This document shows positions 54,522 through 57,825 of a stretch of 64,000 nucleotides of DNA, piece by piece. The DNA is from a virus. The DNA lies in IMG/VR virus record IMGVR_UViG_3300017917_002068, positions 1 to 64,000 of that record; one strand, given 5' to 3'. Position 1 is the first letter of the stretch, and each line of letters opens with the position of its first letter. The translations under genes were made by a program, and so were the position numbers. The notes beneath the pieces are model-generated. The model saw only the letters and a program-made list of their open reading frames with translations, was not told the origin of the DNA and did not search any database.

Positions 54522-55678
54522 AACTAAGACAGCTATTTGAAAGTTCTGGTAAAACAGCGGCAGTCACATTTGGCCGATTAAATCCCCCTACCATTGGACA
54601 TCAAAAATTAGTCAATGCTGTATTAAAGCAAAAAGCCGATGCACATTTTTTGTTTGTTTCGCAGACAACTAAAACTACAGGAAAAAATGCTACTCGTCTT
54701 GCAAATCCTATACCTTTCGATATTAAATTAGGATTTGTACAAAAAGCTTTTCCGAATATTAACATCGGTGATACATCAGTAAAAACAGTAATAAGTATGC
54801 TACAGTTTTTAGAACAACAAGGTTATGAAAATGTTATTTTTGTAGGCGGATCAGATCGTGTTGCAGACTTTGAAGAATTGTTTAATAAACAAAATGGTAT
54901 CGATTACAATCTTAAATCAATTCAAGTAGTATCGAGTGGTGAAAGAGATCCGGATGCAGAAGGTGCAGAAGGTATGAGTGCTAGTAAAATGCGGGCTGCG
55001 GCCATTGCTGATGATTTTAAATCGTTCAAAACCGGATTGCCTTCCGGCTTGCAAGGAGATGCTGAAGAAGTATTTTCCGCTGTTAAACAAGGATTAGAAC
55101 CTTGGCTTGAACAAAAAGTAGGTGAAGGCGTCAAATCAAAAATTGCAGGAGCTGCGTTGGCCGCTGCTAATTTACTAGGCAGTCCAGCACAGGCAGCAGA
55201 AGAACCTGCTAAGCCTATTACTATTGCCTATGTAATGATTGACGGAGAAGTAAGAAAATATAATTTAGGTGATAAATTTAACAATGCTCGTGATGCTGAA
55301 GAATTTATTAGCAGCGTTTTAGATAAAAAAGGACTATCAGGTTACACGCTAGATATCAAACACGGTTATCCTAAAAAGAAAGATGTTAAGGAAGCACCTA
55401 TAGAATTTGATCCAGACGAGCCGATGAATCCGATGATCTACGGTGCCGGTGGCAATCCTGCTAAACTACAATATAGAATGATGCGGGCTGCTAATCAATT
55501 AAAAGATCTAGCATCAAGATCAGAAAAAGCATCTCCTGCCGAATGGCAAACTATTTCTAGACAATTTGACGAGCTGTCTATGAACATCGGTCAAATTAAA
55601 CACGGCTTAGAAGAATTAGCCAAGCAACGAAAGAAAGGCGGAGTTCGTAGCCGAGGCATTGATCCAACCATAGGTTAA
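54518..55678 (+). CDS. HxGH-type nucleotidyltransferase-like domain fused to extra modules
   Basis: FGRLNPPTIGH, GSDR and MSASKMR; C-terminal modules follow VGE and VKE. Confidence 0.75.
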   Translation: MKLRQLFESSGKTAAVTFGRLNPPTIGHQKLVNAVLKQKADAHFLFVSQTTKTTGKNATRLANPIPFDIKLGFVQKAFPNINIGDTSVKTVISMLQFLEQQGYENVIFVGGSDRVADFEELFNKQNGIDYNLKSIQVVSSGERDPDAEGAEGMSASKMRAAAIADDFKSFKTGLPSGLQGDAEEVFSAVKQGLEPWLEQKVGEGVKSKIAGAALAAANLLGSPAQAAEEPAKPITIAYVMIDGEVRKYNLGDKFNNARDAEEFISSVLDKKGLSGYTLDIKHGYPKKKDVKEAPIEFDPDEPMNPMIYGAGGNPAKLQYRMMRAANQLKDLASRSEKASPAEWQTISRQFDELSMNIGQIKHGLEELAKQRKKGGVRSRGIDPTIG

Positions 55679-55681
55679 ATT

Positions 55682-55891
55682 ATGGATTTAAATGATTTAA
55701 AAAAATTAGCAGGGATTAACGAGTTCAAAGGTTATAAACCATATGAAGGTAGTAACGTTTCTATCACAGGTATGGAAAAGCAAGAATTAGAAAAAAAACA
55801 TAATATCAAACCCGGAACTCCCGAATGGTTCCAGCTATGGTTTTCAAAACCTTATCTAACCGGAGAACCACCAGTAGGTAAAAGAAAATGA
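55682..55891 (+). CDS. Hypothetical protein
   Basis: LKKLAGI and [12 protein letters not shown]. Confidence 0.75.
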
Positions 55892-56214
55892 TCGAAATTA
55901 CAGAAGCAGCTAAACAAAAAGTCATAGATTTATTAATCGATGAAAATAATCCTAATTTAAAACTTCGTACCTTCGTTCAAGGTGGAGGTTGTTCTGGTTT
56001 TCAATATGGCTTTACATTTGACGAAGAACAGAACGAAGATGATTTCGAGATTATGCTTAACGACAAATATAAATTGTTAATAGATGCTATGAGCATGAAT
56101 TACATGCAGGGTGCCGTGATAGACTTTAACGATGATATCATGGGATCTAATTTTAATATTAAAAATCCTAATGCACAAACAACTTGTGGATGCGGAAGTA
56201 GTTTTTCGGTGTGA
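55888..56214 (+). CDS. erpA: A-type Fe-S carrier ErpA-like
   Basis: [11 protein letters not shown] and [13 protein letters not shown]. Confidence 0.88.
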
Positions 56215-56218
56215 TATT

Positions 56219-56383
56219 ATGGACAAGACATTAGCAGACTATATTAATAGAATAGCAAATTTAGAAAAACAACTAAAATCTCCTCAACAAGAAATCATTC
56301 CAGAAAAAACTGAACACTTAGTCTATCCGGAACCAAACAGTATAGATTCAGACGAAAAAAGAAATCCTTACAGCAAAGTATGA
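56219..56383 (+). CDS. Small hypothetical protein
   Basis: ATG 56219; ATGA overlap with the next gene. Confidence 0.55.
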   Translation: MDKTLADYINRIANLEKQLKSPQQEIIPEKTEHLVYPEPNSIDSDEKRNPYSKV

Positions 56384-57825
56384 GAGCACACGAAATACAA
56401 CCTAAAAAACTAGTCATCTTTGACATTGATGATACTTTAGTCAATACTCAGACTAAGGTTCATGTAATCAAAGACGATGAGGTTGTTAAAAGTCTTAATA
56501 GTCACGATTTTACTCATTACAAATTACAGCCGGGCGAAGAATTTGATTTTGGTGATTTTCGTAATGCTAGAGAGTTTTTTGAAAAAAGTCGTCCTATCAT
56601 TCCCATGATGAATCAACTTAAGCGTGATATCAATACAGGCAATAAAGTTGTTATGGTTACTGCACGAGCAGACTTCGATGATAAAGAATTATTCTTAGAT
56701 ACTTTTCGTAAGTACGGAGTTGATATGAATAAGGTACATGTTTATCGTGCAGGCAATATCAAGGGTGGAACTACAGAAGAACGCAAAGCACATATCATTA
56801 AAACACTGTTAGACAAAGATAATTATTCTAAAGCCATAATGTACGATGATGCTAAACCCAATCTTCATACATTTATAGATCTTAAAAAAGACCATCCTCG
56901 TACAAGATTTTATGCTTGGCATGTAAGTCTAGACGGGGAAGCATCCGAATACATGCGAGAAGGTATAGTTTCTGAAAGAAAACGTAAGCGTAAAAAAGTT
57001 CGTTGGGCAGCTTATGGTCCAGGACCTTACGGTGGGTATGGATACGCTTCAGGGTATAGCGGAGCAGTGGGCGGTGACGGCGGTGGCGGTGGAGTAGGAG
57101 AAGGATGGAAAGATTGGGTAGGCGGTGCTGCATTAGGAACCGCTGTAGCTGCTGGAGGACCTGCTGCTTACGATATCTATAAAAATTATCAGCAAGATAA
57201 AGAAACTGCTTCATCAATCTCTAAAGCAGATGATACAAAGAGTAATTTTGAAAAAGGTATTATTAAAATTTCAAAAGACGCTATACCTAAACATCTAGTC
57301 ACCGGTTCACCACATGAAAAGTTTTTAACTAAAGAAGCAATCGCCGCAGGTATCAAGGGTGAAGAACTAGCACAATTCTTAGCGCAAACAGCACACGAAT
57401 CACATAATTTCAAATCGATGGTTGAGTATGGCGGTTCATTAGATTTTAAGAAATATGAACCTAAGTTTGTCAAAGATAAAAAAGGTAAAATTGTACAAGT
57501 TAATCCCAAAGCAAAGACATTAGGCAATGTTAAAAAAGGTGACGGTGCTCGATACAAGGGTAGAGGATATATACAACTCACTGGAAGATATAACTATAAG
57601 AAAGCAGGCGAGGCATTAGGTTTACCTTTAGAAGCGAAACCCGAATTAGTAGAAAAGCCAGAAGTAGCCGCCAAAGTGGCTATATGGTTCTGGCAGAATC
57701 GAGTACAGCCTCGAGTAGATGATTTTTATAATACCAAAGCAGCGACTAAACCTATCAATCCGGGATTGAAAGGTCTAGAAGATCGTAAAGAAAAATTCGT
57801 AGATTTTAAGACAGCAATGAAATGA
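56380..57825 (+). CDS. HAD-family phosphatase fused through a Gly-rich linker to a GH19 muramidase domain
   Basis: FDIDDTL, VTAR and YDD; then FLAQTAHES and YKGRGYIQLTGRYNY. Confidence 0.8.
   Translation: MRAHEIQPKKLVIFDIDDTLVNTQTKVHVIKDDEVVKSLNSHDFTHYKLQPGEEFDFGDFRNAREFFEKSRPIIPMMNQLKRDINTGNKVVMVTARADFDDKELFLDTFRKYGVDMNKVHVYRAGNIKGGTTEERKAHIIKTLLDKDNYSKAIMYDDAKPNLHTFIDLKKDHPRTRFYAWHVSLDGEASEYMREGIVSERKRKRKKVRWAAYGPGPYGGYGYASGYSGAVGGDGGGGGVGEGWKDWVGGAALGTAVAAGGPAAYDIYKNYQQDKETASSISKADDTKSNFEKGIIKISKDAIPKHLVTGSPHEKFLTKEAIAAGIKGEELAQFLAQTAHESHNFKSMVEYGGSLDFKKYEPKFVKDKKGKIVQVNPKAKTLGNVKKGDGARYKGRGYIQLTGRYNYKKAGEALGLPLEAKPELVEKPEVAAKVAIWFWQNRVQPRVDDFYNTKAATKPINPGLKGLEDRKEKFVDFKTAMK

Follow-up and report, generated by a model that had tools for sequence, protein, structure and literature searches.

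In bacteriophage T4, the head protease gp21, which is active inside proheads, recognizes the consensus L/I-x-E. The internal proteins IPI, IPII, and IPIII (also gp24 and Alt) bear a capsid-targeting sequence (CTS) that is removed by gp21, and are ejected with the DNA. In the sections consulted, T4 targeting sequences are described as N-terminal propeptides of 10-20 residues (PMC5694885), the internal proteins as a diverse set with only the targeting sequence in common (PMC3012670), and the head proteases of T4, phiKZ, 201phi2-1, and SPN3US as all cleaving after Glu (PMC5694885). Here we describe two genes in a 64,000-nucleotide stretch of virus DNA (positions 1 to 64,000 of IMG/VR record IMGVR_UViG_3300017917_002068; this whole stretch is called the window), which is the first half of a 128-kb record. 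Their products, protein 1 (open reading frame (ORF) 54518-55678, 386 aa) and protein 2 (ORF 56380-57825, 481 aa), each contain a segment resembling an export signal that lies deep inside the chain, directly after a V-G-E junction. We lean toward the view that these segments are genuine, portable export signals in modular polyprotein-like genes, unmasked by cleavage after Glu.

The locus shares with the T4 internal proteins a short leader of similar sequence, a Glu junction with an aliphatic residue at P3, a protease family found in relatives, and a hypervariable, shuffled setting. It differs in having up to six or more modules per gene, with enzymes among the cargo, and in being known from sequence alone; moreover, some modules here begin with signals of the Sec or twin-arginine (Tat) type, none of which was seen in the T4 internal-protein translations examined. 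Like endolysins with a signal peptide or a signal-arrest-release (SAR) segment, protein 2 has a muramidase behind a weakly hydrophobic, Gly/Ala-rich segment, for which Sec-dependent export is expected. In SAR endolysins, however, the segment is N-terminal and joined directly to the catalytic domain of the lysis enzyme, which acts with a (pin)holin, whereas here it stands at residue 242 of 481, is followed by an 80-residue stalk, and coexists with a separate soluble endolysin and spanins; an acidic leader is present even on the short homologues. In flavivirus polyproteins, too, export signals inside a viral polyprotein fix the compartment of single modules, but these act co-translationally at the ER with host signal peptidase, whereas here a cut after Glu is presumed, the host is bacterial, and Tat-type signals also occur.

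Two further systems are close in other respects. The polyvalent proteins described by Iyer and colleagues (2017; PMC5512222, main text) likewise combine several domains, and are presumed to be packaged and delivered together with the DNA before being split into units that have different targets. Their processing is ascribed to embedded metallopeptidase domains, whereas the junctions here fit a head protease and some units carry export signals; neither "signal peptide" nor "periplasm" occurs in the main text of PMC5512222. No peptidase family was matched in either of our proteins by Pfam or PHROGs, in searches that were not aimed at embedded peptidases. The ejection proteins of the giant phages phiKZ and SPN3US, as described in the consulted parts of PMC5694885 and PMC10052503, resemble the present proteins in their large cargo load and in being cut after Glu (A/S/G-x-E) by gp21-related proteases, several times per precursor; they belong to another phage lineage, and "signal peptide" appears nowhere in the main text of PMC10052503. 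In none of the compared systems are Glu junctions and buried Sec or Tat signals combined in a polyprotein, and our literature searches found no paper on export signals within phage cargo polyproteins. What is added here is the Sec-type form, the GH19 passenger, the Sec/Tat exchange on one passenger family, and the separate lysis cassette.

A preliminary description of the window, made from the letters alone, had placed the segments at 55127-55195 and from 57103 onward, directly after V-G-E, with the second one ahead of a GH19 domain. The ORF translations gave exactly these coordinates, and the Pfam GH19 match (PF00182) lies about 80 residues downstream of the second segment. The two segments are homologous, with 14 of 26 positions identical (counted on the translations), and the motif GE[GA]xK occurs at just two sites in the long frames of the whole 128-kb record (six frames), which are these two segments. 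Their shared positions, this unique motif, and their membership of a large family (see below) indicate that the segments are not a product of chance. V-G-E itself was found six times in the long frames of the record; three of the four copies in the long frames of the window (55118, 57094, and 58158) fall at module junctions seen in relatives, and the copy at 58158, the fourth of the window, precedes a basic C-terminal tail.

If cut after Glu, the protein 1 segment would have an n-region with a charge of +3, ahead of a 19-residue uncharged stretch with a mean Kyte-Doolittle value of 1.15; segments near-identical to it were found in many clusters of related proteins. The protein 2 segment has a mean Kyte-Doolittle value of 0.96, and its n-region would carry +1 after the same cut. 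Of the two, only the first segment has a clean A-x-A site (A-Q-A). Across the family, the internal signals are weakly hydrophobic (mean Kyte-Doolittle 0.93-1.46, versus 1.65-2.49 for ordinary N-terminal M-K-K... signals of the same loci), which fits post-translational Sec or Tat routes. An ordinary Sec signal begins at the N-terminus of the translated protein, whereas the two segments begin at residues 204 and 242. An internal translation start was considered and rejected as a general mechanism: neither segment has an in-frame ATG, GTG, or TTG with a credible ribosome site ahead of it, and Trp, the consensus residue at P2′ (59 of 116 family segments), rules such starts out for the family at large. 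In a few Tat-type relatives, Met stands two residues ahead of R-R, and there an internal start could operate.

A profile of the small passenger domain that follows the first segment (alignment A1) was searched against 1.84 billion representatives and retrieved 110 clusters (E ≤ 1e-3), of which 94 also passed E ≤ 1e-10. In these proteins of 83-1531 aa, the start of the domain ranges from residue 2 to residue 930. Directly upstream of it, an internal signal was present in 93 of the 110 clusters, Sec-like in 76 and Tat-type, of the form E↓D-[IM]-S-R-R-G-F-L-[RK]-G, in 17. A Glu stands no more than 12 residues before the hydrophobic core in 75/76 of the Sec-like and 17/17 of the Tat-type cases (92/93 together). 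The remaining 17 clusters comprise nine filter failures, four fragments, and four apparently N-terminal cases; since these four begin inside the signal, they are truncated gene calls, and no plain N-terminal signal before the passenger was found among the 110 clusters except in such evident truncations. In proteins of the passenger family, 116 segments with Glu junctions were collected, at residues 18 to 1078. P3 is V in 68, L in 16, M in 4, and I in 2 (V/L/I in 86/116, or 90 with Met), P1′ is G in 70, D in 17, and S in 9, and a small-x-small site is present in 104. The recurrent junction is [V/L/I]-x-E↓G-W-K. V-G-E, which had been put forward as the site, is present at both junctions of the window, but the motif that recurs in the family is [V/L/I]-x-E followed by G (or D/S).

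The same anatomy was seen in the GH19 branch, where the best 120 of 442 shorter GH19 homologues were counted. A Met start with a hydrophobic segment within 130 residues was found in 92 of the 120; among these, 85 have a leader of the form M-[KR]-x-x-[EDQ]-[FILV], and 82 have a Glu 1-8 residues ahead of the core. At this Glu junction, P3 is aliphatic in 74/82 (L 52, V 11, I 11), P2 is mainly D (45) or E (24), and P1′ is mainly G (60), A (10), or D (9). Uncut, the stretch before the core is acidic (net charge -1.25 on average, mode -3), which is atypical of signal peptides; counted from the residue after Glu, the charge is +1 to +3.

Module exchange was followed in related loci from IMG/VR scans (36 and 35 loci, numbered with L below), with module borders taken from BLAST of their ORFs. 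Homology to protein 2 is interrupted near residues 193-211 and once more at 237-239, the latter exactly at V-G-E, and free-standing homologues of its HAD domain end at about residue 193-200. The GH19 module, from the Glu junction on, was found behind five contexts: the same HAD domain as in the window (L001, L003, L032), a different HAD-like nucleotidase (L006, L038, L053), a short leader and the Gly/Tyr-rich spacer only (L007, L009, L028, L055, L070), a 20-residue leader only (L033), and one or two extra inserted modules (L005, L006, L032). Other modules, such as a basic C-terminal tail, also come after V-G-E, and the spacer precedes other modules in relatives. In protein 1, the order is transferase, signal with domain, and helical module; in L003 it is transferase, a module X, helical module, signal with domain, and basic tail, and in L007 and L070 the helical module directly follows the transferase. 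With such permuted orders, a given module would end up on one side of the membrane in one protein and on the other side in another if the chains stayed uncut.

The signals themselves are also exchanged. In L012, the place of the G-W-K-D-W type between the HAD and GH19 domains is taken by an R-R-G-F-L-K signal (residue 207 of 412), and in L032 an R-R-G-F-L-K signal stands ahead of the small domain. In both relatives, the Tat features S/T-R-R-x-F-L-K, a mildly hydrophobic core, and A-x-A are found together; the twin-arginine motif is absent from the window itself and occurs in relatives only. That the same passengers can stand behind either a Sec-type or a Tat-type signal is the best argument we have for regarding the segments as true export signals.

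A candidate protease is encoded by relatives. Peptidase_S77, the family of T4 gp21, was matched in five of five related large records (E 1e-24 to 1e-29), including one that holds the closest syntenic homologues of both proteins; one S77 homologue per record was detected, and its gene adjoins a coiled-coil scaffold gene and a gp23-family capsid gene. Capsid proteins of the relatives have L-[SA]-E just ahead of the conserved mature core, and the L-T-E of T4, which we take to mark its capsid cleavage position, lies further upstream. In the T4 record, the leaders are M-K-T-Y-Q-E-F-I-A-E in IPII and IPIII, M-A-K-I-N-E-L-L-R-E in gp24, and M-L-K-E-Q-L-I-A-E in gp22; those of the present locus are M-R-A-x-E-F-[VI]-x-E and M-K-L-x-E-[LI]-F. 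By eye, the latter conform to a 10-20 residue leader with an aliphatic-x-Glu end, a likeness for which the leaders are too short for statistics. The leader pattern matches 13 times in the 128-kb record, nine times at the first ATG of an ORF, and six first-ATG genes in a row bear it at 54156-58520. In the distant relative L033, leader-bearing genes are likewise clustered around the GH19 gene.

These findings suggest the following route. A head protease of the T4 gp21 type would, most likely, cut at the [V/L/I]-x-E junction, turning a buried, acid-flanked segment into a normal N-terminal signal whose n-region has a net positive charge. Sec would then export the passenger of protein 1, with release at A-Q-A. 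For protein 2, the weak Gly/Ala-rich signal would either export the extra GH19 muramidase or tether it on the 80-residue stalk; in relatives, twin-arginine signals would serve the same passengers. The earlier proposal that the segments are export signals placed after a protease site gains from the exchangeable Sec and Tat signals, the Glu junctions, the S77 genes of relatives, and the acidic residues upstream, whereas the cut itself, like packaging, injection, and export, is something we infer. As gp21-type enzymes act in proheads, and the leaders are CTS-like, capsid cargo that is exported only after ejection into the next host would be the favoured fate of the pieces. The full two-step route, in which protease-cut envelope proteins ride in the capsid, are ejected with the DNA, and are then sent to the periplasm by the Sec or Tat machinery of the host, is put forward tentatively; the "injected muramidase" of the preliminary description would rest on the likeness of the leaders to the T4 CTS.

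If the unmasking is real, pieces of one translated chain would receive different cellular addresses, including the host periplasm, which would possibly open an extra compartment to injected phage proteins that are delivered ready-made with the DNA. If the capsid route holds as well, a phage could change the envelope ahead of all phage gene expression. Such unmasking would also explain the acidic leaders ahead of export signals in a large group of uncultured phages, and would offer a portable "cut-to-export" tag for engineering.

Several observations weigh against this reading. No Peptidase_S77 gene was found in the 128-kb record, which is rated 37% complete. The protein 2 segment has no clean A-x-A site (only G-P-A↓A-Y) and could be a plain membrane anchor. 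Of the two proteins, only the transferase and GH19 parts found matches when 50,697 phage records were searched with tblastn, and no cultured relative spans the signal segments. Foldseek comparison of the passenger domain with the PDB returned nothing at E ≤ 0.001 and no functional lead. [LIVMAT]-x-E was found within 6 residues of 219 of 477 BLAST breakpoints versus 130 ± 9 at random positions (maximum 160, 500 trials), an enrichment but a noisy one: over half of the BLAST ends lack such a motif in their vicinity. Avoidance of [LIVM]-x-E within the enzyme domains is weak (0 in each versus 2.2-2.3 expected, P ~0.09 each), and there is no depletion over the entire cargo block (39 observed versus 30 expected; other genes alike, ratio 1.14). 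As to timing, a single copy of the T4 late promoter TATAAATA is present in the window, below chance. The shorter ATAAATA, which looks like a variant of the T4 late promoter motif, is found 11 times on the plus strand of the 128-kb record (in the window at 53374-53380, 58942, 19119, and 44945, among others), nine of these no more than 60 nt upstream of plus-strand gene starts; one lies 24 nt ahead of the cargo block and others precede tail-fibre-like and virion structural genes, so that it is only suggestive as a hint of late expression. Early re-export of an injected muramidase has no obvious benefit and some risk. Finally, loop-type insertion of internal Sec or Tat signals without a prior cut is known in other systems.

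The last point leads to the best surviving alternative, which we nevertheless consider unlikely: an internal signal-anchor that is never cut by a phage enzyme. The proteins would be made late, the N-terminal enzyme would stay in the cytoplasm, the segment would insert as a loop so that the C-terminal part crosses the membrane, and host signal peptidase would free the protein 1 part at A-Q-A. This is the simplest reading, bitopic proteins of N-in/C-out topology are common, A-x-A sites would still work, and an Arg/Lys run precedes the protein 2 segment by about 40 residues. The residues just upstream are, however, acidic rather than basic, and the preference for V, L, or I at P3 of the Glu junction in both families is given no reason. 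Signals as deep as residue 1078, behind many hydrophilic modules, and the permuted module orders described above, which would move the same modules between compartments, also fit it poorly. The shortest GH19 forms, in particular, retain an acidic leader of 15-25 residues (85/92) instead of a normal N-terminal signal.

Quite unlikely, in our estimate, is cleavage in the cytoplasm of the producing cell, by free head protease or another Glu-specific enzyme, with late export in the same cell and no passage through the capsid; the products might then be, for example, a holin-independent second lysin and periplasmic helpers. All comparative evidence for unmasking fits this equally, endolysins with signal peptides or SAR segments are known, and GH19 is a common endolysin fold. 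A complete cassette of endolysin, i-spanin, and o-spanin is already present, though, and the GH19 gene stands among the leader-bearing genes, not the lysis genes, both in the window and in L033. The single S77 homologue per related record, for a family whose T4 member is active in proheads, and the resemblance of the leaders to the T4 CTS also point away from the cytoplasm.

Alternatively, the hydrophobic segments could be membrane-active parts of ejection proteins, which enter the inner membrane from outside at DNA entry while the GH19 domain opens the wall locally; such a role has reportedly been proposed for T7 gp16 and T5 Pb2. Muralytic and hydrophobic ejection proteins thus have precedent, the Gly/Ala-rich segment of protein 2 without a clean peptidase site would suit the role, and GH19 is encoded in very large ORFs near the head genes of two related records (G001 and G003). 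Twin-arginine motifs and A-x-A sites (104/116), by contrast, are features read by cytoplasmic export machinery and signal peptidase, and the main passenger is a 60-residue soluble domain and no channel former, which makes this explanation very improbable. That the segments are chance low-complexity linkers with no targeting role is hardly credible: Ala/Gly-rich linkers are common and the window holds two copies only, but the n/h/c organisation is kept, Sec and Tat forms replace each other, and the segments keep their place before the same passengers in 93/110 clusters and 92/120 GH19 homologues.

The modules of both proteins, together with the gene block and the lysis genes, are listed in Table 1.

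Table 1. Modules of proteins 1 and 2, cargo block, and lysis genes (window coordinates)
Feature	Position	Strand	Evidence or remark
Protein 1, leader M-K-L-R-Q-L-F-E and cytidylyltransferase-like domain (residues 1-200)	54518..55117	+	PHROG, tblastn
Protein 1, V-G-E junction (residues 201-203)	55118..55126	+	homology of relatives breaks here, other modules then follow
Protein 1, Sec-type signal-peptide-like segment (23 residues)	55127..55195	+	n-region with 2 Lys, 13-19 residue Ala/Leu/Gly core, A-Q-A↓A-E
Protein 1, small passenger domain (~60 aa), strand-strand-helix-strand, ends V-K-E	55196..55393	+	alignment A1, AlphaFold2, profile search
Protein 1, C-terminal helical module starting A-P-I-E-F-D-P, exchangeable	55394..55678	+	before or after signal module in relatives
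Protein 2, leader M-R-A-H-E-I and HAD-type phosphatase domain (DxDxT), ends I-V-S-E (residues 1-199)	56380..56976	+	Pfam, PHROG
Protein 2, spacer module: Arg/Lys run, Gly/Tyr-rich stretch, terminal V-G-E (57094-57102, residues 239-241)	56977..57102	+	
Protein 2, G-W-K-D-W and 19-residue Gly/Ala-rich uncharged segment, weak, SAR-like	57103..57168	+	starts at residue 242
Protein 2, ~80-residue polar stalk and GH19 muramidase domain	57169..57825	+	Pfam, PHROG, solved structures
Cargo block, tightly packed genes with T4-CTS-like leaders and Glu junctions; contains both proteins	53405..60226	+	leader-pattern scan
Soluble GH19 endolysin, 210 aa	46234-46866	+	PHROG endolysin, E 1.8e-77
i-spanin	46869-47369	+	Rz-like spanin PHROG, E 7.2e-10
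o-spanin, lipoprotein, L-T-G-C lipobox, overlaps i-spanin	47290-47724	+	Rz-like spanin PHROG, E 1.1e-7

In protein 1, the transferase was matched by the PHROG cytidyltransferase family phrog_3041 (E 8.7e-51, residues 8-194), and residues 2-205 are about 40% identical to the cytidylyltransferases of cyanophages, pelagiphages, and Melnitz (tblastn). These matches start at query residue 2 (window 54518-54560), so the leader-like N-terminus may be common to the enzymes of cultured T4-like phages, which would then be candidates for capsid targeting. An AlphaFold2 model of the small passenger domain had a mean predicted local distance difference test score of 77, and its best Foldseek match was a structural-genomics protein (probability 0.91, template modelling score 0.61).

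In protein 2, the HAD domain was recognized by Pfam PF03767 at E 0.0013, weaker than the family cut-off, and by the polynucleotide kinase/phosphatase-like family phrog_415 of PHROGs at E 2.5e-10. The GH19 domain was matched by Pfam PF00182 (E 1.2e-13, residues 326-444, which is 57355-57711), by the endolysin family phrog_181 of PHROGs (E 2.8e-40), and by solved structures of GH19 phage endolysins (E down to 1e-21). It shares 39% identity with the endolysin encoded at 46234-46866, and the A-H-E-S motif is retained and aligned; the match and the retained motif suggest an extra muramidase that is probably active. The spacer runs from the Arg/Lys run through A-A-Y-G-P-G-P-Y-G-G-Y-G-Y, G-Y-S-G-D, and a Gly run to V-G-E. 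It recurs between unrelated modules, both in the window (56977-57102) and in L001, L004, L005, L007, L010, and L021, and may be a disordered linker or a site for the protease. Small, very basic C-terminal tails end many ORFs (window 58158-58334; L008, L010, L013, L015, L021, L022), one of them beginning N-F-A-D-G after a Glu junction; these tails are reminiscent of the basic internal peptides in T4 heads.

Because the window has its own endolysin-spanin cassette, the GH19 domain of protein 2 is extra and not needed as a lysis enzyme. A two-helix membrane protein without a family match follows the spanins (47936-48373) and may be a holin. No match to the T4-lysozyme or SLT family was found in the four records searched. 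A GH19 domain was also seen inside very large ORFs, at G001:C1:330963-331136 (1503 aa frame) and G003:C1:108912-109094 (895 aa frame), a few kb from the head protease gene; it is probably a virion-associated wall hydrolase and the third GH19 copy of the lineage.

Related large records of 335 and 353 kb are 95-98% complete; 128 kb at the completeness rated for the present record implies about 340 kb for the whole genome. The viral DNA polymerase is most similar to those of Sinorhizobium phage Phosso (50%), Agrobacterium phage Atu_ph07 (47%), and the PBECO4 group (44%), and by these sequence affinities the source is classed as an uncultured jumbo phage of the T4 superfamily. The stretch directly ahead of the cargo block (49515-52360) encodes a peptide deformylase and a ClpA/ClpB-like protein with two AAA+ domains. 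An IscA-like Fe-S assembly protein (Pfam, E 8.7e-18) lies within the block of leader-bearing genes (55888-56214), and a NifU-like protein is encoded elsewhere in the window, at 24897-25295.

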